A DNA stretch of 40,000 nucleotides, taken from Candidatus Altimarinota bacterium. GTDB taxonomy: Bacteria > Patescibacteriota > Gracilibacteria > CAIRYL01. The stretch lies in assembly GCA_965250085.1 (NCBI GenBank), contig OZ252287.1, positions 638,934 through 678,933 of the forward strand, written 5' to 3'. A model generated the notes under the pieces. The model ran no database searches. It worked only from the letters and a program-made list of their open reading frames with translations, and was not told where the DNA came from. The translations under genes and the position numbers were made by a program. Shown in pieces: positions 3,000 through 38,700 of the stretch (positions are counted from its first letter, which is position 1; every line of letters begins with the position of its first letter).

Positions 3000-3872
3000 T
3001 TAAAAAGGGAGATCTTCTGGCTTGATGTCACTTTCATAGTTGATTTCTGGCACATCAGTGGGTTCTGCTTTTTGTGGTGCTGGATTTTCAGAAGCGGCCT
3101 CATTCCCTACCGGTACGGCTTCTTGTCCAGCGCCTCTTCCATCAGAGGAAGGAAGATTTTGAGATGGATGTCCGAGAGCAAGGATACTCTTGGCGTTAAT
3201 TTCTGTGGTATACCTCTTTTCTCCATCAGGAGTCTCCCATGATCTGGTCTGCACATTGCCAGTAATAAATACTCGCTGTCCTTTTTTAACAATTTTTTCC
3301 GTATCGTCAGCGAGAGCACCCCAAGCAACAATGTTGTGAAACTCTGCCTCTTTTTGTTGCTCATTGGTTTCTTTGTTGGTCCAAGTGCGATTGGTGGCCA
3401 CACTGAGTTTTATCACGCTTTTTCCACTGGGCGTTTGTTTTATTTCTGGATCTTGAGTGACGTTTCCCAAAACATCTGCGCGATTGAGCCCTCCAGCAAC
3501 TGCAAATGAATCATCCAGTGGAGAAAGTGGCACTCGTGGATCCAGAAGAATCACTGGATCGTATGGAGAAAGAACAATCTTGGTTTTGTATTTTTTCTTT
3601 CCCTGGTCGTCTTCCCAAGAATCTGTTTTGAGCCTTCCGGAAGCATAGACTTGCGAGCCCTTGCGTGCATATTCACTGAGAAATTTGGCACTCTGTCCCC
3701 ACACGGTTACCGTATGAAATGATGAGCTTATACCCTCACTTCCATCATCTTTTTGAAATTTTGATCTTACTTGAACATTGAGATCGGTGACGGACATGCC
3801 ACTGGGCAAGTCTCTAACCTCTATATCTTCGGTGAGATATCCAATAATCTGTACAGAATTTACGTCTCGCAT
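3000..3872 (-). CDS. ssb: Single-stranded DNA-binding protein with two tandem OB folds and an acidic C-terminal tip
   Basis: Two complete SSB-type OB domains. The first runs VNSVQIIGYLTEDIEVRDLPSG...GRLKTDSWEDDQGKKKYKTKIV. The second runs LNRADVLGNVTQDPEIKQTPSGKSV...GNVQTRSWETPDGEKRYTTEINA. A Pro/Gly/Ala-rich linker follows, and the protein ends ...IKPEDLPF, the canonical D-x-P-F tail. Confidence 0.9.
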   Translation of the reverse strand: MRDVNSVQIIGYLTEDIEVRDLPSGMSVTDLNVQVRSKFQKDDGSEGISSSFHTVTVWGQSAKFLSEYARKGSQVYASGRLKTDSWEDDQGKKKYKTKIVLSPYDPVILLDPRVPLSPLDDSFAVAGGLNRADVLGNVTQDPEIKQTPSGKSVIKLSVATNRTWTNKETNEQQKEAEFHNIVAWGALADDTEKIVKKGQRVFITGNVQTRSWETPDGEKRYTTEINAKSILALGHPSQNLPSSDGRGAGQEAVPVGNEAASENPAPQKAEPTDVPEINYESDIKPEDLPF

Positions 3873-9195: not shown

Positions 9196-10389
9196 CTACC
9201 GCTCCCACTCCCAGCGTCTTTTTTCGAGCCCAGATTCTCCTGTATGGGTATCAACAAGTCCTCCAATATTGAGTTGTACCGGCGTACGAACCTTTTCTCC
9301 AGAGGGAAGTTTGCGAACAACGATCATGGTAATATCATCTTCTTGTTTTTCGTATTCTTCCATGAAGGTACTAAAATCCTTCGTTACACCATCAAAGATT
9401 CGCTCTGCAGTTCCTCCTTTAACACAATATTTTCGAAATGATTCTTGCAGTGTGTCCACACTATACATTTCTCCTTTTGGATTTTTTCCTTCGGTGATTC
9501 CATCGCTATAGAGCAAAATGACGTCATTCTCTTCGAGAGAAATATTTTTTTCTTCAATAAATGATTCCAAATCTGGCGCCATTCTGAGAGCTATTCCACC
9601 AGTAGGAATTTTTTCAACAATCCGTTTTTGAGCCCTGTAGATCAAAATATATTCATGACCTGCCCCTATATAATGCATCTGCTGCTTGACCTCATCCCAC
9701 CTGAGCATTACCAGTGTCATAAATTGCTGAGACTTGAGCCTTTGATGCAAAATAGTATTAATCTTAGTAAGGATTTCATGGGGGAACATGCCATGCCGTG
9801 CAAAAGCGTGAATGAGAGTATTGACCACCATCATGACCAGCCCTGCTGGAACACCGTGTCCCGTCACATCTCCAATATAAATAATCATATTATTGTTCTG
9901 TTTTAAGAAGTCAAAAGAATCTCCGCCCACCTGAGCCGCTGGACGAGTACGTGCTACAACATCAAGTCCCAAAATATCTGGAGCTTTTGAGGGGAGGATA
10001 TCCTGCTGAATCCTTCGAGCAATATCAATCTCTGACATGAGTTTTTTATTTTCAATAATGTCTTTTGAAATATTTTCAACACTCAACGTTATCTTATTAA
10101 AAAAATGAGTGAGCACCCCTATTTCATCGGCAGAATGTGGATTGAGACGTTGATATTTTTTACCGGTCAATAAATGTTTTACTTCTGAAGTAAGGCGAAA
10201 TACAGGGCTTGAAACAAGAAAAATAAAATACAAAAGAATCATTAAAAAAAGTGAAGGAATTCCTATATATATAACAGATGGAGGAAAAGATTGAGTTCTC
10301 TCAAAAATATAGACCGCACTTCCAACAGCACAACCTCCGAGAAGAAGTAAAAATCCAAAGAACTTGAATGTGAGGCTTCGAAGGATCAT
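9196..10389 (-). CDS. Membrane-anchored HAMP-domain PP2C/SpoIIE-family serine phosphatase (RsbU-like)
   Basis: Two N-terminal TM helices. HAMP-like linker (VFRLTSEVKHLLTGKKYQRLNPHSADEIGVLTHFFNKI). SpoIIE/PP2C core (ARRIQQDILP...VGGDSFDFL...GDVTGHGVPAGLVM...LYSDGITE). Confidence 0.85.
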   Translation of the reverse strand: MILRSLTFKFFGFLLLLGGCAVGSAVYIFERTQSFPPSVIYIGIPSLFLMILLYFIFLVSSPVFRLTSEVKHLLTGKKYQRLNPHSADEIGVLTHFFNKITLSVENISKDIIENKKLMSEIDIARRIQQDILPSKAPDILGLDVVARTRPAAQVGGDSFDFLKQNNNMIIYIGDVTGHGVPAGLVMMVVNTLIHAFARHGMFPHEILTKINTILHQRLKSQQFMTLVMLRWDEVKQQMHYIGAGHEYILIYRAQKRIVEKIPTGGIALRMAPDLESFIEEKNISLEENDVILLYSDGITEGKNPKGEMYSVDTLQESFRKYCVKGGTAERIFDGVTKDFSTFMEEYEKQEDDITMIVVRKLPSGEKVRTPVQLNIGGLVDTHTGESGLEKRRWEWER

Positions 10390-10405
10390 GTTGGTATATT
10401 AAGGA

Positions 10406-11212
10406 TTAAGGATTATGTATTTGTTTTTGAAATTCATCGGGAGTGATATGAATCATTTTTGTCATTCCTACCAGATCAAAAATTTCGAATATTTTTTCAG
10501 GAACATTTTGGAGTACTAAGTCACCGTTTTTTTTCTTCATTTTTTGTTTCCAATCAGCAACTTTTGCAAGAAATGTAGAATTGCAAAATTCAAGATGTGA
10601 AAAATCTAAAATCAAAAGCGTCGGTTCTTCTATATCATCAATAAACGAATCTATTGGCTCTGTATTTTTTTGAAATGTCACATCATCTATCTGCCCAGAA
10701 ATAGGAAGTTTTTCTAAAGGGAGATGTGGATTGGGAAGACTTTTAAGCGAAGTATTGGCATGTATTTTGGGTACAGATTCTTCGCCTTCCACCAATATTT
10801 TCGTAAAAATCATGCAAATACCTCCTCTGGTACCATCATGTACTTTCAAAGAATCTGCCCATTTGCTAGAAATTTGTGCAAGTCCTCGACCCGATTGCTT
10901 TCCGAGATCTGTATTCGATTCTTCTGCAACGATTATTTTTTTTAGCTCCTGGGCCGAAATTTTCTTTTCTCCTCCTTCGTCTTCAAGAGAAACTTGAAGA
11001 GTCGGGTCTTCAAACTCAAAAGTAATGTAAATATTCGATTCCTCTGTAGATCCATACCGAACTGCATTCATGAACAATTCATCAAACACAAGCTGTAGGT
11101 GCGAAAGGGTGCTTCCTTCAAATCCACATTCTTGAAATACACACATTGCAATGCTCCTAAGAGCAGGAGCAAGGTGAATATTGGCAGGAATGGTGAGAGG
11201 ATACCTCTTCAT
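10406..11212 (-). CDS. Fusion protein: RsbW/SpoIIAB-like anti-sigma serine kinase (HATPase_c) plus a C-terminal STAS (anti-sigma-antagonist-like) domain
   Basis: N box FDELFMNAVRYGS, G1 LEDEGGE and G2 QSGRGLAQISS occur in the first ~150 aa. The C-terminal ~100 aa (LLILDFSHLEFCNSTFLAKVADWKQKMKKKNGDLVLQNVPEKIFEIFDLVGM) matches the STAS pattern, including a Ser/Thr at the usual phosphorylation position. Confidence 0.8.
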   Translation of the reverse strand: MKRYPLTIPANIHLAPALRSIAMCVFQECGFEGSTLSHLQLVFDELFMNAVRYGSTEESNIYITFEFEDPTLQVSLEDEGGEKKISAQELKKIIVAEESNTDLGKQSGRGLAQISSKWADSLKVHDGTRGGICMIFTKILVEGEESVPKIHANTSLKSLPNPHLPLEKLPISGQIDDVTFQKNTEPIDSFIDDIEEPTLLILDFSHLEFCNSTFLAKVADWKQKMKKKNGDLVLQNVPEKIFEIFDLVGMTKMIHITPDEFQKQIHNP

Positions 11213-12951: not shown

Positions 12952-14195
12952 TTATGCTTTTCCTCTCATCACTAGTGTCGCTTCCAGTCTTTCGAGAGCC
13001 GTAATAAATGCTGCTTGGCGCATAGTGCACCCATATTTCTTTTCATTTTCTACTACCTTAAGAAGCGCGTCTTCCATAATACATTTGAGTTTTTCCTGTA
13101 TCACTTCTTCATCCCAATAGTGATTCGTGTTGTTTTGAACTTGCTCAAAGTATGAGACGGTCACTCCACCAGCATTGGCGAGGATATCTGGGATTATTTC
13201 AAATCCTTTTTCTGTGAGGATTGCATCTGCTTCGGGAGTGATGGGGCCATTTGCCAACTCTACAATGATAGGTGCTTTGACTTCACTGGCATTTTCAATA
13301 GTGATTTGATTTTCATATGCGGCAAGTACCAGAACGTCTACATTTGTAGTGAGAAGTTCTTCATTGGTGATTTTTTTTCCCTTGGATACGCCTGCACGGT
13401 GCGTTTTTCTCGTTTTACCTGCATTGCGATTTCTGGATCAAGTCCTCCCTCCACAAAGATTCCTCCTGCGGAATCAGAGACGGCTACTATTTCTACTCTT
13501 TTGGGTCCAAGTTTTTTGAGAATTTTTGCCATATTTGCTCCGGCATTTCCAAATCCCTGAATCGCAACTCTCATTTTGACAGGGCACGATCCTTTGACAT
13601 CACAAAATTTATGAATCACATAGGCCCCTCCCTGCGCAGTAGCAGTTGCACGCCCCTTGCTTCCCCCAAACTCCAGAGGTTTACCAGTAACCACTCCCAA
13701 AACGTTGTATCCACGAAGAGTGGAATATTCATCTGCGATCCAGCTCATGATTTGAGCATTCGTGTACACATCAGGAGCAGGGACATCTTTTTTAGGCCCA
13801 ATAATAGGAGCAATACGACGAGTATATCCACGCGTCAGTGCTTCCAATTCTCGATCAGAAAGTTCTTTGGGATTACAAATCACCCCTCCTTTTCCTCCTC
13901 CGAGTGGAATATCTACTACAGCACATTTCATTGTCATCCATGCGGCAAGCGCCTTCACTTCGTCTATGTTCACATCCCAATGATAGCGAATTCCTCCCTT
14001 TGCGGGTCCGCGCAGAGTAGAGTGCTGCACACGATAGCCCTCAAACACCTTTGTTTCTCCACTGTCCATTTTTACTGGGACAGAAACATGTAAGATTCGT
14101 TCTGGTTTCCGAAGGATCTGTTGTACATCTTCGCGAAGATTCATGATCTTTGCCGCATCTTCTATCTGCCGGAGGGTACTTTCATACAGAGACAT
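12952..14195 (-). pseudogene. gdhA: Glutamate dehydrogenase (Glu/Leu/Phe/Val dehydrogenase family), split by one frameshift in a poly-A run
   Basis: N-terminal ORF 13338..14195 carries the catalytic block KGGIRYH...PLGGGKGG and the NAD(P) motif IQGFGNAGA. C-terminal ORF 12952..13257 carries [10 protein letters not shown]...[16 protein letters not shown]. Translating 13258..13370 in the C-terminal frame gives [47 protein letters not shown], which joins the two halves. The frames switch in the T8 (coding-strand A8) run at 13371..13378. Confidence 0.85.
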
Positions 14196-30130: not shown

Positions 30131-31372
30131 ATGGCGGTTCAAGATCTGAGAGAAAAATTGACGGATGCAATTATAGCGGGAAACACTCCTCAGATTGTAA
30201 AAATATGTCTCACCATGGCACTTGAAATGGGTGCTTCTGATGTTCATGTAGAACCTGGAGAAAAAATCGTTCGCATTCGATTTCGTATCGATGGCATCTT
30301 GAGAGAAATAATTGAATATCCTCATAATATACATTCGGCCGTGATTTCTCGTATAAAAATCATGTCTGGATTAAAAATCGATGAACAGAGAAAGCCACAA
30401 GATGGGCGTATGCAAATGGTTACTGAAAACCATAAGCAAATTGAACTTCGTGTCTCTACTTTGCCCACAATAAATACAGAAAAAGCTTGTATGCGTTTGC
30501 AAGATAAAAACAAAAATATTCCTCCTCTTGAAAAACTAGGACTTAGAGGAAACAACTATAAAGCAATGATGAAAACTATCAAAAATCCAAATGGAATTAC
30601 GCTTGTGACAGGGCCTACCGGATCAGGAAAAACAACAACCCTCTACTCTATGATGGATGTATTAAATAAGGTGGATGTAAATATTTTAACCATTGAAGAT
30701 CCAGTAGAATACGAAATGCCCGGACTCTCACAGAGTCAAGTAAAGCCTGAGATTGATTATGATTTTTACTTCGGTCTTCGTACAGCATTGAGGCAGGATC
30801 CAGATATCATCATGGTGGGAGAAATACGAGATCAGGAGACTATTGAAACTGCTATCAAAGCGGCTCTTACTGGCCATATGGTGCTCTCTACTATTCACAC
30901 CAATTCTGCTGCATCAACAGTCACTCGTATTTTAGATATGGGGGTAAAGCCTTTTAAAATAACTGCTTCTCTTAGAACCATTCAGGCACAGAGATTGGTG
31001 CGAAAAATTTGCGAAAACTGTAAAGAAGAGTATGTGGCAGAATCAAAAGTAGCTGAGGAAATTGCTAAGGAACTCCAACAACTCCATGCTGAAGAAGATT
31101 TTGATCGCACTCTTTTACAAGATATGAAGCTCTATCGCGGAAAAGGCTGTGAAAAATGTGAACATACTGGAATGAAAGGGCGAGTCGCTATTTTTGAAGT
31201 AATGACGATGACCAGGCAACTTGAAGAAATGATTCTCAATGGAAAGCATGAAAAGGATATTGAAGATTTTGCTATTTCACAGGGAATGACAACGTTATTG
31301 CAAGATGGATACATCAAAACACTTTTGGGAGTAACAACTCTCGAAGAAATCTATAAAGTCGCGAACTCTTAA
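30131..31372 (+). CDS. pilB: Type IV pilus assembly ATPase, PilB/GspE family (short form without the N1 domain)
   Basis: Walker A GPTGSGKTTTLYS, Asp box ILTIEDPVEY, Walker B ALRQDPDIIMVGEIRD, His box GHMVLSTIHTN, and the tetracysteine motif CENC...CEKC typical of PilB/GspE rather than PilT. Confidence 0.9.
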   Translation: MAVQDLREKLTDAIIAGNTPQIVKICLTMALEMGASDVHVEPGEKIVRIRFRIDGILREIIEYPHNIHSAVISRIKIMSGLKIDEQRKPQDGRMQMVTENHKQIELRVSTLPTINTEKACMRLQDKNKNIPPLEKLGLRGNNYKAMMKTIKNPNGITLVTGPTGSGKTTTLYSMMDVLNKVDVNILTIEDPVEYEMPGLSQSQVKPEIDYDFYFGLRTALRQDPDIIMVGEIRDQETIETAIKAALTGHMVLSTIHTNSAASTVTRILDMGVKPFKITASLRTIQAQRLVRKICENCKEEYVAESKVAEEIAKELQQLHAEEDFDRTLLQDMKLYRGKGCEKCEHTGMKGRVAIFEVMTMTRQLEEMILNGKHEKDIEDFAISQGMTTLLQDGYIKTLLGVTTLEEIYKVANS

Positions 31373-31432
31373 CTCTTATTTCATAATTTTTTCCTTATAC
31401 TAGCTACCTCTCAATTTTTAATTCCCCTCCCT

Positions 31433-32632
31433 ATGACAGACTCTCCTTCACTTCATATCGGCAAAGACGAATACAAAGCAGTTAATATCACAGATGTAAG
31501 GCCTGCAAACCAGCAAATGTCTAGTGGAAGTCTGTTTGAGAGACTCAATGAGTGGGTTATCGTCAAATCCCCTTTAAAACTCAAGGAAAAAGTTGCCTTC
31601 TTTCGACTTCTCGCAACTATGATCAATGCCGGTGTCTCACTGATCAAAGCGCTTTATATTTTAGAAGAACAAACTCAGGATCAGAAAATGAAGCGTATTT
31701 GTCAGTCCATTGCTCTTAAAATAGAACTCGGGCAAAAGCTTTCTCAGGGACTTGAAGATTATCCTGAAATCTTTACTGACTCAGAGATTGGAATGGTTCG
31801 CTCAGGAGAAGCTTCGGGAAGGCTCAATGATATTTTGATTACTCTTGCAGATGAAGTAGAAAAAAATGCAAAGTTAAGAGGGAAAATAAAGGGCGCTATG
31901 ATGTATCCCCTCGCAATTATTGTAGTAGTTATCGCCGTTTTTGTGACAGTAACAGTGCTTGTAATTCCAAAAATGCAAGCCATCTTTGAAACTGCTGGAG
32001 CAGAGCTTCCCTCAAGTACCAAGTTTTTAATGGCGATGAGTAATTTTTTCCGAGGATCCTTTTTTGGAATTCCGAATTTTATTTTTATTATTCTGGGAAC
32101 TATTGGGCTCGGTGTCGCTTTTAAGATGTGGAAAAATACTGAATCAGGAAAGTATTATTGGGATAAGTTCTTTCTCAAAATTCCTATTTTTGGAACACTC
32201 AAGAGAAAATTGGTTCTCACTCAATTTGCCAATAATATTTCAACTCTGACCAAAAGTGGTATCTCTATTGTAAAAACCCTTAAAATTACTTCTGATGTTG
32301 TAGGCAATGAAGTATACAAAAGACGTATCCTTCTCATTGCTGAAGATGTAAAACAAGGTATTACTATTGGAGAAAACATAAAAGGAGACATCAAAATATT
32401 TCCCACTATGCTGGTATCTATGATCGCTATTGGTGAGCAAACTGCTCAGTTGGATACCGTGACGGCAAAAGTAGCAGATTTTTATCAGGATGAAGTAGAC
32501 ACGATGGTCAAATCTCTCTCCTCTCTTATGGAGCCATTCATTATTGTTTTTATAGGAGGAATTGTAGGATTTATGGTAAGTGCCATCATGCAGCCGGTAT
32601 TACAACTGAGTGATGTTGCTTCCAGTCTATAG
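31433..32632 (+). CDS. pilC: Type IV pilus platform protein PilC (GspF family)
   Basis: Two T2SSF repeats (FFRLLATMINAGVSLIKAL...; LTQFANNISTLTKSGISIVKTL...) and three TM segments. Ends ...GGIVGFMVSAIMQPVLQL. Confidence 0.9.
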   Translation: MTDSPSLHIGKDEYKAVNITDVRPANQQMSSGSLFERLNEWVIVKSPLKLKEKVAFFRLLATMINAGVSLIKALYILEEQTQDQKMKRICQSIALKIELGQKLSQGLEDYPEIFTDSEIGMVRSGEASGRLNDILITLADEVEKNAKLRGKIKGAMMYPLAIIVVVIAVFVTVTVLVIPKMQAIFETAGAELPSSTKFLMAMSNFFRGSFFGIPNFIFIILGTIGLGVAFKMWKNTESGKYYWDKFFLKIPIFGTLKRKLVLTQFANNISTLTKSGISIVKTLKITSDVVGNEVYKRRILLIAEDVKQGITIGENIKGDIKIFPTMLVSMIAIGEQTAQLDTVTAKVADFYQDEVDTMVKSLSSLMEPFIIVFIGGIVGFMVSAIMQPVLQLSDVASSL

Positions 32633-32693
32633 TATTACATACTATTTTTGAGAACTTGACAAACACTGCTCCCTATGACCTAAGAAATATTGC

Positions 32694-32722
32694 TTGTTTT
32701 TTAAACGGAGAAATGGTATACT
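32694..32722 (+). promoter_or_regulatory. Candidate extended -10 promoter for the pilin gene
   Basis: TTGTTT (32694..32699), 17 nt, then TGgTATACT (TATACT at 32717..32722). A ~100 nt T/C-rich leader precedes the ATG at 32827. This is a pattern match only. Confidence 0.25.
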
Positions 32723-32826
32723 GGTGGGTGAAGATGTAGACAAAAATATATTTTTCTTTAAAAATTCTGTTCTCATTTTTGATTTCTTTTTTTCCTTTTT
32801 TTTTATCTTTTTATCCCTTTTTTCTT

Positions 32827-33336
32827 ATGAAGAATACAAAAGGTTTTACCCTTATCGAGCTTCTCGTGGTGATTGCCATTATTGGTATCCTCGCGACCGG
32901 AGCTGTTACTGTATTTTCTCAGGCTCAAGCAAAAGCTCGTGATGCCGTGAGACTTGCAGATCTCAACACACTCCGCAGTGCTGTAGAGGTCTATAGAGCT
33001 GACAATACCACCTATCCAGATGGTACCAGCGCCACTACCTTTGACTCTGCTATTGAAGGACCTTATGTCCAGTCAGTTCCAAGTGGTGCTACTGCTTATC
33101 CATATAACTACGCAGTGCTTACTTCTGAGTTAGCAGCCCCAACAAATTATGAAATGGCTGTTCTTTTGGAAGCATCTTCTAACTTAACTGCCACTGGAGC
33201 CGCCCAAACTGATGGAGGTGGACAAACCGATGCATATGAAGTCGGTCCTGTCTCTAGTTACATTGAAGGAGCCTCTGGAGCAACCGGCGCAAATACCGCT
33301 GCTACTTCTCCTGCCGCTACTATGAGTGTGTTGTAA
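32827..33336 (+). CDS. Type IV pilin (prepilin with an N-terminal methylation motif)
   Basis: MKNTKG|FTLIELLVVIAIIGILATGAV is a canonical class III signal peptide. The mature protein has no Cys and an Ala/Thr/Gly-rich C-terminus. Start at ATG 32827, because the track's upstream extension is F/L-rich junk. Confidence 0.9.
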   Translation: MKNTKGFTLIELLVVIAIIGILATGAVTVFSQAQAKARDAVRLADLNTLRSAVEVYRADNTTYPDGTSATTFDSAIEGPYVQSVPSGATAYPYNYAVLTSELAAPTNYEMAVLLEASSNLTATGAAQTDGGGQTDAYEVGPVSSYIEGASGATGANTAATSPAATMSVL

Positions 33337-33395: not shown

Positions 33396-33527
33396 GAAAA
33401 TATATTATACACCCCCCCTCCCTTCGTTGGTTCAGGTTTTTTCTCCATCGAATGTTCGTGACATAAAGGTGTGTTTATGAGAGAATAATAGTCCGAGAGA
33501 AAAAACCTCTTTGCTCTTTATCACCAC

Positions 33528-33975
33528 GGGGATGACTGGCTTTCGACAGGAAGAATGCCAGATATATAATTGCCATTCGGGGATTCGTTCTTTCCTCCCC
33601 GCATATCCGGAAAAAACACTATAAGTGCAAATACTTTTGCCTCTAAAGCTCAAAGGTTCTTTGCTCGCTTCGCTCCTGCAAAGGTAGCGCCAGCATTTGC
33701 AATGGCCTAAGCTTTTTTCTCCGTTGAGCATAGCTCCGGAGAACGCTGTTCCTCTCTGTATCCTAAAGTGGAAGGTAGCAGTGTAGACTTTTTTAGGACG
33801 TAATGTTTTTCTTTTGCCTCTTTTTAGAAACATTCTGTATACCTAAAAAGAAGCCTTTTGTGCGGCTTTACGCCTCTCTTTTATCGCATAAGAGCACCCC
33901 TGAAGAGAAGCTATGATGGAAGATATTATGTATTTGCCTTTCTGGACGGGGGTTCGATTCCCCCCATCTCCACCA
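33528..33975 (+). ncRNA. ssrA: tmRNA (SsrA)
   Basis: The 5' end GGGGATGACTGGCTTTCGACAGG and the 3' end GGACGGGGGTTCGATTCCCCCCATCTCCACCA (T-arm plus acceptor plus CCA) are the canonical tmRNA termini and pair with each other. Candidate tag ORF GCA AAT ACT ... GCC TAA at 33627..33710 encodes ANTFASKAQRFFARFAPAKVAPAFAMA. Confidence 0.9.
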
Positions 33976-34483: not shown

Positions 34484-37400
34484 TTATTTGATTTTTGTCA
34501 AGTATATCCTGATCTTACTTTCATTGAGGACTATTTTCTGTTCAAAATGAGCATTTTTTATCTCTTTTTCAAATTTTATTTGCTTCGCCAAAACCTCTGC
34601 GGCAATTTCTTTTTCAAATTGCTTGAGAGTTGCTAAAGTGCTTTTTTCTCCTGCAACTGTAAGCTCTATACGATCGGCAACATCAAATCCGGCCTCTTTT
34701 CGAGCATCTTGGACACAACGGACAAATTCTCGCATGAGTCCTTCATCTTTAAGTGATTCGGTAATATTCATGTCGAGAGAAACCACAATGCCTTTAAACG
34801 AACTCACATCATGATCGCCTTTGCCATGATACTCCACTTCATAAGTTCCTTCCTCGAGGAAATACTCCCCTACTTGCACTCCTCCTTTGGTTTCTGTGTA
34901 TTCACCTGATTTTGCCATTTGTATTACCTGCTGCATATTTTTCCCAAACACAGGACCCAATTTTCTCGCGTCTGGCTTGATGATGCATTCACATATTTCT
35001 TCTGCCGTTTTCATGAGCCTCACCTCTTTGACATTCAGTTCTTTGAGGATAACCTCTTTGTTGTCCTGCAAAGTATTTTGAGAAAATTTATGAGGAAGAA
35101 ATACTTCTGCTTCCTGTAGAGGCTGGCGTAATTTGATTTTCTGTTGTGCTCTCAAAGAGAGCCCTAGGGAAATAATTGTCTCTACAACTTCAAATTCTCG
35201 CCTGAGCTCAGAATCATCTGGAAGATTCTCGAACTCAGGAAAATCTGTCAGATGCACGCTTGTTTGCTTGGTAAGATTTTGATAGATGTGCTCCGTCATA
35301 AAAGGAGCAAATGGAGCAAGTACCTGACAAAAAGTAGTCAATACTGTGTACAGCGTCTGAAATGCTTCTTCTTTATCTTGTCCCATCCCAGATTTCCAAA
35401 ATCTTCGCCGAGAACGTCGTACGTATCCATTTGTAAGCTTATCAAGGAACACGCGAATATTTTTCACTGCATTAAAGAGGTCATATCCTTCCATTTCTGT
35501 CGTCACATGACGCACAAGTTCTCTGAGCTCTGTCAAAATCCAACGATCAAGTTTTGCTTGCCCTGAACCTGCCGAAGGGGAGTTTGGAGTTTTGAGTTTG
35601 GAGCTTTTTTTACTCCCTCCTCCCTTCTCTTCACTCCCTGCTGGCACCCATCCATCTATATTGGCGTATGTCACAAAAAACGAATACGCATTCCAAAGAG
35701 GCAGAAATACATTTCGCATGTTTTCAAGTACTGCTTTTTCAGAAAATCTCAAATCATCTGCTTTGACGACTGGTGAATTCATAAGCGTAAATCGCACGGC
35801 ATCTACTCCAAAACGTTCAAATACTTCATGAGGATCAGGATAGTTTTTTTTGGATTTGGACATTTTCTGTCCGTCTTCGGCCAGCACAATTCCATTTACA
35901 ATTACATTTTTGAACGCTGGTTTGTCAAAAAGTGCAGTGGAAAGTACATGCAAGGTGTAAAACCATCCTCGTGTTTGATCCAGTCCTTCAGCAATAAAAT
36001 CCGCTGGAAAGTTTTGTTCAAATTTTTCTTTATTCTCAAATGGATAATGACTCTGAGCATATGGCATAGATCCGCTTTCAAACCAACAATCAAGTACTTC
36101 TGAGACACGTTCCATTTCCTTTCCTGATGCAGAAAGAATTGTAACTTCATCAATATATGGCTTATGAAGATCTACCTCTCCTTTTGGATTTTCTGGTCGA
36201 CCGTCAAAACTATAGATCTCATACTCCCCCGTATCCAGCATTACCTTCTCAGATCCTTTGGGATCAAAAAGGAACTCTATAGATTCATGAGTAAAAAACT
36301 TTCGGATAATGCGGGCCGGGTCTCCATGTGTAATCACGAGAATGTTTTTGTCACGATATTCTTTTTGGATCTCTCGTAAAAACTCGCTTGCTCTCTGTAA
36401 AACATCTTCCTGAGTTTCTCCGTTATGAGAGTTTCCGTAATATCGTTCATGTGCATCTGGAAAGAGCTTACGAAACTCCGTAAGTTTTTTGCCTTCACGA
36501 TCTCCTACATCTACCTCTTTGAGTCTTTTATCAACTCGGATTTTCTTTGGATCTATCTCGAGTTGGGTAGCGACAATTTCTGCAGTTTGACGAGTTCTGA
36601 GAAGAGGTGAAGTAAAAATCATATCAATCTTTTCTTTTCGAAGCTCCTGTCCGGCGCTTTGTGCTTGGCTTTTTCCTTTCCCGGTAAGCTCGACTGTTGA
36701 ATCTATTCGAGAATCAATAAGCCCTGTAATATTGTGCTTCCCTTCTCCATGACGCATTACAATTATTTTGGAGTTTTTCTGGCTTCGTTCTTGGAGTTCT
36801 TTGATTGAGCCAATACATTCTACTTCACCTGTTTCTGGGCATCGCCACACCGGCAATGGTGCTCCCCAGTATCGATTTCGTGAAATCGCCCAGTCCTGAG
36901 CATTTTCTAACCAGTTGTGAAATCTTTTTTGACCAATGGCTTCTGGTACCCAATGAACTTGCTTGTTATTTTTGAGCATCTGTTTTTTGATCTTTTCCAC
37001 GTGTATAAACCAAGTTTTGACCCCTCGATACATCAAAGCGCTGTCTGTTCTCCAACAATGGGGATAGCTGTGGCGCACGCGATCATGACGAAAGAGATGT
37101 CCTGACTTTTTAAGTTCTTCAACTACCCAATCATTTGCATTGCTTTCTTTGGAGCCTGGCACTTCTGGATCAGGGCGAAAATATTTTCCCTCAAGTTCGG
37201 AAATAGTGTCATCAAAAAAGCAATTCTCATCAAACGGATACAACAGTTCCACATTATGAGCCGTCAAGATACGAGCATCATCTTCTCCCGTTGGTGCCAT
37301 GTGTACCACACCCGTTCCTTCCTCGTCAGACACAAAATCATCTCCAAAGATTTGAAAAGCATTTGCATGGTTCTTGAAAAATGGGAAAAGAGGTTGGTAT

Positions 37401-38389
37401 TTTTTGTATTTTTTCAATAACTGATTTCCCTTAAAAGTTTCAACTAATTCTGCCATATTGAGTTTACTATATTTTTTAGACTCAAATATTTTTTTTGATA
37501 AAATAAAAAACTGAGAACCTGCCGAGTGCAAAGCTTGCTTATTTGCTTCTGTTGCAGTTGGATAAGAAGAAAATTTATAAATTATTTCTCCTGCATGATT
37601 TTTCCAAACATCCCTTTTAACTTTCACATACTCAATTTCTGGATGCACTACGAGTCCCAGGTTCGAGGGCAATGTCCAAGGCGTTGTTGTCCACGCCAAG
37701 ATGTATGTAGGTTCTTCATTCGTAACTCGTAATTCGTTATTTGGCATTAACTGAAATTTTACCGTAACGGCTGGATCATCAATGTCTTTATAATTGAGAC
37801 CTGCTTCAAAATTGGAAAGTGGAGATCCCAATTTGGGAGAATAGGGAACGACTTTTTCTCCTTCATAGATCAGTCCCTTGTCCCAGAGACTTTTAAACAC
37901 CCACCACACTGACTCCATAAACTCGGGATTCATGGTTTTATAGTCGTCTTCAAAATCCACCCAGCGTCCCATACGAGTCACTGTTTTTTTCCAATCCTCT
38001 GCACAGCGCATCACAATACTTCGACACAGTTCGTTATATTTCCCTACTCCCATACTTTCGATCTCTGGTTTGCCACCAATTTTATTTTCTTTTTCTACCT
38101 GAAACTCGACCGGTACTCCATGACAATCCCAGCCAAATCGCCGTTCAATGCGCTTTCCTCGCATGGCAAAAAACCGGGGGATCACATCTTTGATTGTTCC
38201 TGCAAGTATGTGTCCATAATGCGGCAGACCGGTTGCAAAAGGAGGTCCATCATAAAACGCATACCGATCCTTCGTATCTCTCATTTCAATACTCTTGCGA
38301 AATATATCGTTTTTTTTCCAAAACGAAATGATATCACGTTCTAGTTGTGGGAAGTTTTGCTTTGGATCAACTGACTGAAAATATGTCAT
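34484..38389 (-). CDS. ileS: Isoleucine--tRNA ligase (type 2, eukaryote-like) with an inserted histidine-phosphatase (PGAM-like) domain
   Basis: HIGH motif PHYGHILAG, editing-domain block WTTTPWTLPSN, WAISRNRYWGAPLPVW, KMSKS motif GQKMSKSKKN and the DQTRGWFYTL block. True start is ATG 38389 (MTYFQSVDPKQNFPQLE), because the track's extension to 38500 runs into the leader. An insert at about 36203..36769 carries RHGE, SPLLRTRQTA and THG motifs. Confidence 0.95.
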   Translation of the reverse strand: MTYFQSVDPKQNFPQLERDIISFWKKNDIFRKSIEMRDTKDRYAFYDGPPFATGLPHYGHILAGTIKDVIPRFFAMRGKRIERRFGWDCHGVPVEFQVEKENKIGGKPEIESMGVGKYNELCRSIVMRCAEDWKKTVTRMGRWVDFEDDYKTMNPEFMESVWWVFKSLWDKGLIYEGEKVVPYSPKLGSPLSNFEAGLNYKDIDDPAVTVKFQLMPNNELRVTNEEPTYILAWTTTPWTLPSNLGLVVHPEIEYVKVKRDVWKNHAGEIIYKFSSYPTATEANKQALHSAGSQFFILSKKIFESKKYSKLNMAELVETFKGNQLLKKYKKYQPLFPFFKNHANAFQIFGDDFVSDEEGTGVVHMAPTGEDDARILTAHNVELLYPFDENCFFDDTISELEGKYFRPDPEVPGSKESNANDWVVEELKKSGHLFRHDRVRHSYPHCWRTDSALMYRGVKTWFIHVEKIKKQMLKNNKQVHWVPEAIGQKRFHNWLENAQDWAISRNRYWGAPLPVWRCPETGEVECIGSIKELQERSQKNSKIIVMRHGEGKHNITGLIDSRIDSTVELTGKGKSQAQSAGQELRKEKIDMIFTSPLLRTRQTAEIVATQLEIDPKKIRVDKRLKEVDVGDREGKKLTEFRKLFPDAHERYYGNSHNGETQEDVLQRASEFLREIQKEYRDKNILVITHGDPARIIRKFFTHESIEFLFDPKGSEKVMLDTGEYEIYSFDGRPENPKGEVDLHKPYIDEVTILSASGKEMERVSEVLDCWFESGSMPYAQSHYPFENKEKFEQNFPADFIAEGLDQTRGWFYTLHVLSTALFDKPAFKNVIVNGIVLAEDGQKMSKSKKNYPDPHEVFERFGVDAVRFTLMNSPVVKADDLRFSEKAVLENMRNVFLPLWNAYSFFVTYANIDGWVPAGSEEKGGGSKKSSKLKTPNSPSAGSGQAKLDRWILTELRELVRHVTTEMEGYDLFNAVKNIRVFLDKLTNGYVRRSRRRFWKSGMGQDKEEAFQTLYTVLTTFCQVLAPFAPFMTEHIYQNLTKQTSVHLTDFPEFENLPDDSELRREFEVVETIISLGLSLRAQQKIKLRQPLQEAEVFLPHKFSQNTLQDNKEVILKELNVKEVRLMKTAEEICECIIKPDARKLGPVFGKNMQQVIQMAKSGEYTETKGGVQVGEYFLEEGTYEVEYHGKGDHDVSSFKGIVVSLDMNITESLKDEGLMREFVRCVQDARKEAGFDVADRIELTVAGEKSTLATLKQFEKEIAAEVLAKQIKFEKEIKNAHFEQKIVLNESKIRIYLTKIK

Positions 38390-38482
38390 AGGGAATTTTA
38401 AATTTTGAATTATAAATTTGCTAAGAGCTAATGGCGAACTGCTAAAGGCTTTAAATATCAGAGCATCTTTCCCCACATTACT

Positions 38483-38700
38483 AAAAAAATACACAGACAC
38501 ATATAGTATCTCTGCAAGGGTTCAAAATTGAACGGTACCACCTTGCTTCCCCGCTCTGCGGGGCAACTTTATTTCTTTTGATCACGGAGTTATTTGGACT
38601 GATTCTCCGGAAGAGTCTACTTTTCGCCTGAGGCGAATTTCTTTCTTCGGCGCACTCCTCTCTGGAGTATTGTAAAGTGATTCCTTTACTCTAACGCTTT
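38483..38700 (-). promoter_or_regulatory. T-box leader (tRNA-sensing riboswitch) upstream of ileS
   Basis: On the minus strand, the Stem III-like hairpin CCCCGC-AGA-GCGGGG (38563..38549) is followed directly by AAGCAAGGTGGTACCGTTC. This folds as a canonical antiterminator: helix GCAAGG/CCTTGC, a 7-nt bulge TGGTACC and helix GTTCAA-TT-TTGAAC (38546..38514). A candidate terminator GCAGAGATAC-TATAT-GTGTCTGTGT plus A-T7 lies at 38515..38483. Upstream are AGAGA and AGTAG motifs and a possible AUC-A specifier (38603..38600). Confidence 0.7.

Follow-up and report, generated by a model that had tools for sequence, protein, structure and literature searches.

Few known enzymes are as conserved as the aminoacyl-tRNA synthetases (aaRSs). 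The process described here has its closest precedent in CAAD, a stand-alone membrane protein of cyanobacteria that internal loops of monomeric class I aaRSs (ValRS, isoleucyl-tRNA synthetase (IleRS), LeuRS, GluRS, and others) have acquired repeatedly and independently, at alternative insertion points and with aminoacylation retained (PMC4893482). An extra enzymatic domain within IleRS is represented by the NCBIfam model ileS_w_GNAT (NF040702), and histidine phosphatase domains joined to a second catalytic domain are found in PFK-2/FBPase-2 and in the RNase H/acid phosphatase Rv2228c. Here, we describe the ileS gene of a Candidatus Altimarinota bacterium (Patescibacteriota), which encodes an IleRS with a complete branch-1 histidine phosphatase nested in an internal turn. 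The gene lies in a stretch of 40,000 nucleotides (GCA_965250085.1, contig OZ252287.1, forward-strand positions 638,934–678,933), referred to below as the window, and all coordinates are counted from its first nucleotide.

The nested domain shares its fold, its length of ~190–210 aa, and the RHG...R...E...H residue set with PhoE (YhfR of Geobacillus stearothermophilus), PspA, CobC, Rv2419c, and Rv3214, but PhoE-type enzymes are free-standing, whereas the insert is nested in another enzyme. Free-standing phosphatases encoded between argS and ileS in other Patescibacteria (P0003 from Staskawiczbacteria, P0201 from Nealsonbacteria) belong to the same subfamily and have the same partner, ileS. They are 36–40% identical to the insert, which is as close as the nested copies are to each other, but they are separate polypeptides, and the IleRS encoded beside them has a short native CP3 turn. 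CAAD resembles the phosphatase in its recurrent capture by internal loops of class I aaRSs, but it is a non-enzymatic membrane anchor from a different phylum, whereas the phosphatase is enzymatic, its active site is conserved, and it stems from the neighbouring gene. In the relatives examined, the GNAT domain occupies a different loop, after WFESGS. PFK-2/FBPase-2 and Rv2228c, which were both among the sequence matches, are end-to-end fusions, and their partner domains are not aaRSs.

No description of the IleRS–phosphatase architecture or of its linkage to ileS was found in the searchable literature, which covers few subscription journals, so that this absence is not proof. With respect to that literature, the architecture and the ileS linkage are undescribed, while the enzyme and the domain as such were already known. 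For an aaRS to enclose a second catalytic domain that is apparently active is unusual, and its retention by well over a hundred deep lineages makes it even more so.

A nested phosphatase in the CP3 turn of IleRS

The longest open reading frame of the region, and its sole long one, spans 34484..38500 on the minus strand (1338 aa from a GTG). We place the start at the ATG at 38389, because the closest homologue (P0017) can be aligned from residue 1 and a sigma-70-like promoter match lies upstream (Table 1). From this ATG, a single unbroken frame encodes 1301 aa, as stated in the initial annotation. The protein is a type-2 (eukaryote-like) IleRS that scores 896 bits against the ileS model TIGR00392 (equivalog cut-off 621.4), in two stretches with the insert between them. 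Correspondingly, the Pfam order is tRNA-synt_1 in two stretches flanking His_Phos_1, followed by Anticodon_1 and DUF5915. The closest solved relatives are cytoplasmic eukaryotic IleRS and the T. thermophilus enzyme. The HIGH, KMSKS, and CP1 editing motifs have established meanings in IleRS, and all are intact here (HYGH, residues 57–60; KMSKS, 842–846; WTTTPWT, 233–239; GTGVVHMAP, 358–366), in agreement with the initial annotation, which had named the first two.

The window protein contains no GNAT domain and stays below the ileS_w_GNAT cut-off (305 bits against 1999), and the models for the mupirocin-resistance enzymes MupA and MupB (NF000257/8) gave 661 and 646 bits, both below 1900. A search with Rfam gave neither a leader RNA nor a T-box ahead of ileS. 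A housekeeping role of the gene is favoured by synteny, as the fused genes at two other loci (L001 and L002) share the housekeeping ileS context. Within the part of ileS that encodes the CP1 editing domain (37350–37649), the GC content falls to 0.29, compared with 0.40–0.45 elsewhere in the gene.

The inserted segment comprises residues 541–729 (189 aa). All phosphatase motifs listed in the initial annotation (KIIVMRHGEGKHN, LTGKGKSQAQ, IFTSPLLRTRQTAEIV, EVDVGDREGK, NGETQEDVLQRASEFL, and ILVITHGDPARII) are present in the translation, and the profile comparison bore out the assignment. In the full protein, PF00300 (His_Phos_1) matches residues 542–707 with an E-value of 4.2e-38 (131 bits, cut-off 21.7), and the excised 189 residues alone give 1.1e-39; the scores range from 131 to 137 bits overall and cover profile positions 1–167 of 194. 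A sequence search of the Protein Data Bank with the insert returned PhoE (1EBB/1H2E, E-value 4e-16) and phosphoserine phosphatase 1 as the best solved relatives. An AlphaFold2 model of CP3 with the insert (pLDDT 88.6, pTM 0.85) was compared with known structures using Foldseek, and the top matches were PhoE, Rv2419c, PspA, Rv3214, and CobC, with target-normalised TM scores of 0.74–0.78 and a probability of 1.00 each for 1H2E, 4IJ6, 2A6P, and 6E4B. By target TM score, the short phosphatases outrank the mutases of ~230–250 aa. The fold search and the sequence search thus agree in grouping the insert with the short phosphatases, and the modelled fold is of the alpha/beta/alpha phosphoglycerate-mutase-like type.

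The residues expected at the active site of such an enzyme are strongly conserved. Among 135 nested copies, R546 and H547 (the predicted phospho-accepting nucleophile) of the RHG motif are kept in 99%, R598 (in SPLLRTRQTAEIV) in 99%, E625 in 93%, and the second catalytic histidine, H688, in 97%; further conserved positions are N553 (87%), E658 (98%), and R666 (97%). For E625, we assume the role of general acid/base that this residue has in PhoE and dPGM. R546 and H547 are also present in all of 30 free-standing copies. The mean pairwise identity of the inserts is 31.6%, compared with 42.7% for the host IleRS. With catalytic residues kept at 93–99% against an overall identity of ~32%, the active site is, as judged from these alignments, under selection. 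No conserved positions outside the generic family motifs were found in the nested copies, and the cap region (approximately residues 634–655) is the most variable part of the insert. The nested domains are near-neutral, with a median isoelectric point of 6.6. By appearance, the nested domain is a complete PhoE/CobC-type histidine phosphatase that looks catalytically competent.

In the initial annotation, the insert was placed in the catalytic core, within the Rossmann fold. Alignment to solved IleRS structures corrects this point. With domains named after ScIleRS and CaIleRS (PMC7955072, PMC7191050), the alignment to solved eukaryote-type IleRS halts at window residue 536 (ScIleRS/human 492) and restarts at residue 739 (498), so that ~200 aa stand in place of five residues (ScIleRS 493–497) within CP3. 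CP3 of ScIleRS comprises residues 459–526, with the CP2-3 linker ARDWNVSRNRYWG ahead of it (PMC7955072), and this linker matches the 13-residue CP2-3 linker of the window protein. The topology of CP3 varies among the Candida, Thermus, and Staphylococcus enzymes (PMC7191050), and an insert-less relative (L014) has a short native turn, SSLELEKSSGIKVNDLHK, at the position of the insert. Thus, ~200 aa replace a five-residue turn of the peripheral, structurally plastic CP3; the insert lies outside the catalytic core and leaves the Rossmann core uninterrupted.

Recurrence, repeated capture, and coupling to ileS

The architecture had initially been presented as one with no described counterpart. No paper that describes it was found, but it is not unique. 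A word-indexed search yielded one partial protein from Paceibacterota with an identical junction (36% identity), and when GTDB species were scanned with one genome each, two full-length examples emerged, on a 219-kb and a 75-kb contig. An exhaustive HMMER search with the insert and 30-aa flanks as query against 1.84 billion cluster representatives (50% identity) gave 65 matches below 1e-30. Among the best 150 matches, 108 have an N-terminal IleRS part, the insert, and a C-terminal IleRS part, and 27 more are one-flank fragments; thus, ~135 of these 150 representatives, most of them from Patescibacteria, are IleRS that have the insert at an identical position. The taxonomy was read from the names of the fragment matches and from the two GTDB loci, and the named matches comprise the Patescibacteria group, Paceibacterota, SR1, and one metagenome-assembled genome of Rectinemataceae. 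The insert is found in both IleRS2 subtypes, the eukaryote-like one (DCWFESG) and the Thermus-like one (DVWFDSG, with a Zn-knuckle).

The variant is therefore common, and pairs of PF00133 and PF00300 had already been precomputed in the database, although neither a paper nor a dedicated NCBIfam model covers it. The automatic names of the matches are “histidine phosphatase family protein, partial”, “class I tRNA ligase family protein, partial”, and “isoleucyl-tRNA synthetase”. One further protein among the search results, P0025 (2848 aa), matched query residues 167–193 in 36 short stretches and is a repeat protein, not an IleRS.

An assembly chimera is untenable, because the same junctions occur in ~135 divergent sequences of independent assemblies, and the GC content across both junctions is flat (0.40–0.44). 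Similarly, an inert, decaying passenger without function would be at odds with the intact reading frame and with catalytic residues that are retained at such low overall identity. We consider either of these explanations extremely improbable.

Further evidence comes from the free-standing relatives of the domain. The closest complete ones are 180–200 aa long and share 36–40% identity with the insert. Seven were placed on their contigs, and five of them (P0003, P0005, P0201, P0211, and P0212) are encoded directly upstream of an insert-less ileS of 933–993 aa, with gaps of ~1 to 85 nt. Four of these loci are argS–phosphatase–ileS operons, in which the phosphatase gene abuts or overlaps the end of argS, and one has the order phosphatase–ileS–recO. 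The two more distant homologues lie in a cluster of NUDIX, Trp- or TyrRS, and LeuRS genes and in a “nucleotide house-cleaning” cluster of YfbR-like, NUDIX, and Ham1 genes, respectively. At L001 and L002, the fused ileS is preceded by argS, and a separate phosphatase gene is absent. Given this adjacency in unfused loci and the lack of a separate gene in the fused ones, the nested domain is therefore the same gene as the upstream neighbour of ileS, relocated into ileS; the opposite direction, fission out of ileS, is possible. In the window itself, neither a separate phosphatase gene nor argS is present within the 40 kb. SmpB is encoded near the argS–phosphatase–ileS operon at four related loci (L004, L007, L009, and L014). 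Another locus, L003 (“uncultured archaeon”), was considered as an IleRS and rejected, as it encodes a free-standing phosphatase beside a GHMP kinase-like gene.

In a neighbour-joining tree of 234 domains, nested and free copies are interleaved, and some of the “free” sequences may be fragments. A host tree that included insert-less IleRS revealed one incongruent case. The insert-less IleRS of L014 (GCA_964998225.1, 4001–7609) groups with insert-bearing ones (nearest P0101, 52%), and its free-standing phosphatase groups with other free-standing copies (55–58%). This pattern could reflect a fission or a replacement event.

Mapping of every His_Phos copy onto the window numbering revealed three insertion sites in IleRS. 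The CP3 turn holds ~175 copies, the loop after WFESGSMPYA (residues ~780–795) three to four, and the loop before the anticodon-binding domain (residues ~916–946) at least seven. At the third site, the window protein contains no phosphatase but a low-complexity 27-mer, and six relatives (P0150, P0140, P0040, P0095, P0062, and P0024) have a His_Phos copy exactly where this loop lies. Tandem copies are frequent. Nesting is not confined to IleRS, because a ValRS fragment (P0031) contains four tandem His_Phos_1 copies after approximately residue 420. Adjacency in unfused lineages combined with repeated fusion at three loops is a classic signature of a functional link.

Other enzymes are nested in IleRS as well. 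In several relatives (P0020, P0129, P0018, and P0140), the loop after WFESGS also houses a GNAT domain, a P-loop kinase-like domain (AAA_18/AAA_33, in P0020), or a serine hydrolase, and GNAT and His_Phos domains occur together in P0129 and P0018. When the kinase-like, hydrolase, and GNAT domains nested alongside were classified in search of clues to a substrate, the matches were all generic and weak. In these reduced genomes, IleRS is a hotspot for nested enzymes. P0018 additionally has an IS200-like Y1 transposase domain within its N-terminal half. The P0129 family (GNAT and His_Phos, 1561 aa) is found on contigs that reach 2.1 Mb, a large size by the standards of typical Patescibacteria.

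GNAT, P-loop kinase-like, serine hydrolase, and phosphatase families are typical of antibiotic modification, and GNAT-based immunity to adenylate mimics is known from MccE. The nested enzymes might accordingly provide built-in immunity by modifying or destroying an IleRS-directed inhibitor, such as an aminoacyl-adenylate mimic, where it binds. NCBIfam curates ileS_w_GNAT as an exception model, with no counterpart for the phosphatase form, and the literature on IleRS inhibitors describes GNAT enzymes together with self-resistant IleRS copies (PMC6331615). However, the phosphatase is found in many lineages in the housekeeping operon argS–phosphatase–ileS–recO and not in resistance or biosynthetic islands, and neither the insert nor a free-standing homologue matched any anti-phage defence family in PADLOC. 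Moreover, the phosphatase lies in a different loop from the GNAT or kinase domains and does not have to serve the same purpose as they do, and we know of no phosphorylated IleRS inhibitor. We regard built-in immunity as quite unlikely.

Proposed function of the nested enzyme

We propose that the gene product is a bifunctional IleRS/phosphomonoesterase with two independent active sites, in which the phosphatase is, at the genomic level, a partner dedicated to ileS. A bifunctional product had already been suggested in the initial annotation, and it remains the best reading. The IleRS part would activate isoleucine and charge tRNA-Ile as usual, because the HIGH, KMSKS, and editing motifs are intact. 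The inserted domain would project from CP3 and hydrolyse a phosphomonoester via a phospho-His547 intermediate, with R546, R598, and H688 holding the phosphate and E625 acting as proton donor. The substrate would be a small phosphorylated metabolite or a nucleotide rather than tRNA, and the benefit of the fusion would lie in obligatory 1:1 co-expression or co-localisation with IleRS. The phosphatase would be autonomous and generic, as its free-standing forms evidently work in trans. Mechanistically, the fusion was probably favoured by the proximity of the two genes and by the permissive loops of IleRS, and it would have become fixed once the free copy was lost. An orphan metabolic enzyme that hitch-hikes in a reduced genome, another of the initial suggestions, comes close to this explanation, but a GpmA-like mutase is unlikely given the missed profile cut-offs and the grouping of the fold with short phosphatases. 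We hold with high confidence that the identity of the domain, its site, its recurrence, and its coupling to ileS are as described; our judgement on the independent-sites mechanism is evenly balanced, and the explanation as a whole, description and mechanism together, seems to us somewhat probable.

Several points weigh against this explanation. Catalysis is a prediction from sequence, and the insert missed all NCBIfam equivalog cut-offs, so that no substrate is assigned: 46 bits against 81.7 for pgm_1 (TIGR01258), 95 against 225 for archaeal dPGM (NF038349), 96 against 162.9 for CobC (TIGR03162, the best NCBIfam similarity of the insert), and 92 against 350 for PspA (NF045917), with SixA and GpmB likewise below threshold. 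Because no curated equivalog threshold was reached, the substrate cannot be transferred from the PhoE, PspA, or CobC relatives. Neighbour-joining trees are too rough to give the number or direction of fusion or fission events, and the co-divergence of host and insert is weak though significant (Mantel r 0.23; 1 of 2000 permutations). The single-copy status of IleRS and phosphatase was seen within the 40-kb window, which holds no second copy of either. In addition, pure hitch-hiking does not easily account for the capture at three IleRS loops and in ValRS or for the adjacency in unfused lineages; both hint at a functional tie of a more specific kind. Finally, the CP2-3 linker just ahead of CP3 lines part of the pocket for the tRNA CCA end (PMC7955072), and given the position of this linker, a location of the phosphatase near the tRNA acceptor end is possible.

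A rival view is that the phosphatase acts in cis on what IleRS handles. It might serve in the healing or quality control of tRNA 3′ ends by removing a 3′-phosphate, 3′-pyrophosphate, or 2′,3′-cyclic phosphate from the CCA end before charging, or it might dephosphorylate a nucleotide product or analogue at the entrance of the active site. Action in cis would fit the separate captures at three IleRS loops and in ValRS, the conserved adjacency to ileS, and the location of CP3 directly after the linker that lines the CCA-end pocket. It would also fit the P-loop kinase-like domain added in P0020, as the pairing of kinase and phosphatase is the logic of RNA end-healing enzymes, the location of distant free-standing relatives amid NUDIX, YfbR-like, and Ham1 nucleotide-cleaning genes and other aaRS genes, and the similarity to CobC, which acts on a nucleotide-like 5′-phosphate. 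Against this view, no residue other than those of the generic catalytic motifs is conserved, and the cap varies from copy to copy; on median, the domains are near-neutral or acidic, a property that sets them apart from RNA binders; free-standing versions function untethered; and we know of no member of the superfamily that acts on RNA ends. Furthermore, CAAD insertions lie on the face that points away from the tRNA (PMC4893482). We consider action in cis rather unlikely, and the broader proposition, in which IleRS (and ValRS) of Patescibacteria have the phosphatase as a dedicated partner that acts on the synthetase's own substrates, seems improbable to a similar degree.

The superfamily also includes the protein phosphatases SixA, PGAM5, and Sts-1, and the nested domain might remove an inhibitory phosphate from IleRS or from a neighbouring translation factor, such as the mark of a HipA-like toxin kinase. 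Tethering would provide a high local concentration for this purpose, and the insert has a weak match to SixA, with an E-value of 6e-11, under the cut-off. However, the conserved operons contain no associated kinase, there is no sign of IleRS phosphorylation, and the best relatives are small-molecule phosphatases. A role as protein phosphatase is very unlikely in our view, and the bifunctional enzyme with two independent active sites remains the explanation that we favour.

The different outcomes would carry different implications. If the phosphatase acted on tRNA ends or adenylate analogues, it would represent a new quality-control mechanism. As a dedicated partner, it would form a previously unknown repair or quality-control layer within an aaRS, for example by clearing tRNA 3′-end (pyro)phosphates or by destroying toxic nucleotide or adenylate analogues, and the decoration of three loops with phosphatase, GNAT, kinase-like, and hydrolase domains would constitute an enzyme “toolbelt” around the aminoacylation site. 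If it were only a hitch-hiker, it would provide a clean natural example of neighbourhood-driven domain nesting. Through its genomic ties to ileS, a protein of the candidate phyla radiation that was known only by the anonymous label “histidine phosphatase family protein” becomes a testable partner of the translation apparatus. The architecture is also relevant to annotation naming, in which fragments are called phosphatase or tRNA ligase, to protein engineering at permissive loops, and to the packaging of functions in minimal genomes.

Features of ileS and the surrounding window

The features of the gene and its product are listed in Table 1. Their assignment rests on profile matches, structure-based alignment, motifs, and conservation, as indicated for each row.

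Table 1. Coordinates of the window ileS gene, its protein domains, and its motifs (all on the minus strand).
Feature	Position (strand)	Evidence or remark
ileS, type-2 (eukaryote-like) IleRS with nested phosphatase, 1301 aa	34484..38389 (-), stop codon included	open reading frame, TIGR00392, Pfam
Promoter-like site TCGCCA-17-TATAAT	38409..38437 (-), just upstream of ATG 38389	consensus scan 10/12, pattern match only
IleRS residues 1-540: first Rossmann half, CP core, CP1 editing domain, CP2, CP2-3 linker, first CP3 half	36770..38389 (-)	Pfam, structure alignment, motifs
HYGH	38210-38221 (-)	motif
WTTTPWT (CP1 editing)	37673-37693 (-)	motif
GTGVVHMAP (CP1 editing)	37292-37318 (-)	motif
CP2-3 linker, 13 residues	36863-36901 (-)	alignment to ScIleRS
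Last 16 residues of first CP3 half before insert	36770-36817 (-)	alignment
Nested branch-1 histidine phosphatase, residues 541-729, 189 aa	36203..36769 (-)	PF00300, PhoE sequence match, AlphaFold2, Foldseek
RHG motif: R546, H547 (predicted phospho-accepting nucleophile), G548	36746..36754 (-)	conservation
R598, second phosphate-binding arginine	36596..36598 (-)	99% kept
E625, predicted general acid/base (KEVDVGDREG)	36515..36517 (-)	93% kept; role by PhoE/dPGM homology
H688, second catalytic histidine (ITHGDP)	36326..36328 (-)	97% kept
IleRS residues 730-1301: CP3 return, second Rossmann half, low-complexity loop, anticodon-binding domain, C-terminal DUF5915	34487..36202 (-)	Pfam, alignment, motifs
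DLHKPYIDEV (re-entry into CP3)	36143-36172 (-)	motif
DCWFESGS (second Rossmann half)	36068-36091 (-)	motif
KMSKS	35852-35866 (-)	motif
Low-complexity 27-mer loop GSEEKGGGSKKSSKLKTPNSPSAGSGQ, residues 918-944, site before the anticodon-binding domain	35558-35638 (-)	sequence

Immediately downstream of ileS, a full-length tmRNA gene was identified on the plus strand (33528–33975; Rfam RF00023, 108 bits), whereas ARAGORN made no prediction in the window. A 133-aa open reading frame on the minus strand (33432–33833) is probably spurious, because it overlaps the tmRNA gene. Just before the tmRNA and ileS lies a type IV pilus set (30131–33336, plus strand), which comprises a PilB-like ATPase, a PilC-like platform protein, and a pilin with the N-terminus FTLIELLVVIAIIGILA.

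The more distant parts of the window contain four further loci of note, all on the minus strand. At 9199–11212, a SpoIIE-type PP2C phosphatase (397 aa) adjoins a 268-aa fusion of RsbW-like HATPase_c_2 and STAS domains; this pair looks like a partner-switching module with kinase and antagonist in one chain. The open reading frame at 13341–14195 (285 aa) encodes a Glu/Leu/Phe/Val dehydrogenase that matches the 241-position C-terminal domain only over positions 1–100 and may be a truncated, frameshifted, or split gene. The segment 15964–23947 encodes a 742-aa protein that weakly matches T4SS-DNA_transf (VirD4/TraG-like), followed by three large open reading frames of 552, 532, and 556 aa without Pfam match, and may be a secretion- or conjugation-related island. 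Finally, the 290-aa single-strand-binding protein encoded at 3003–3872 has two SSB/OB matches and thus belongs to the tandem-OB type.

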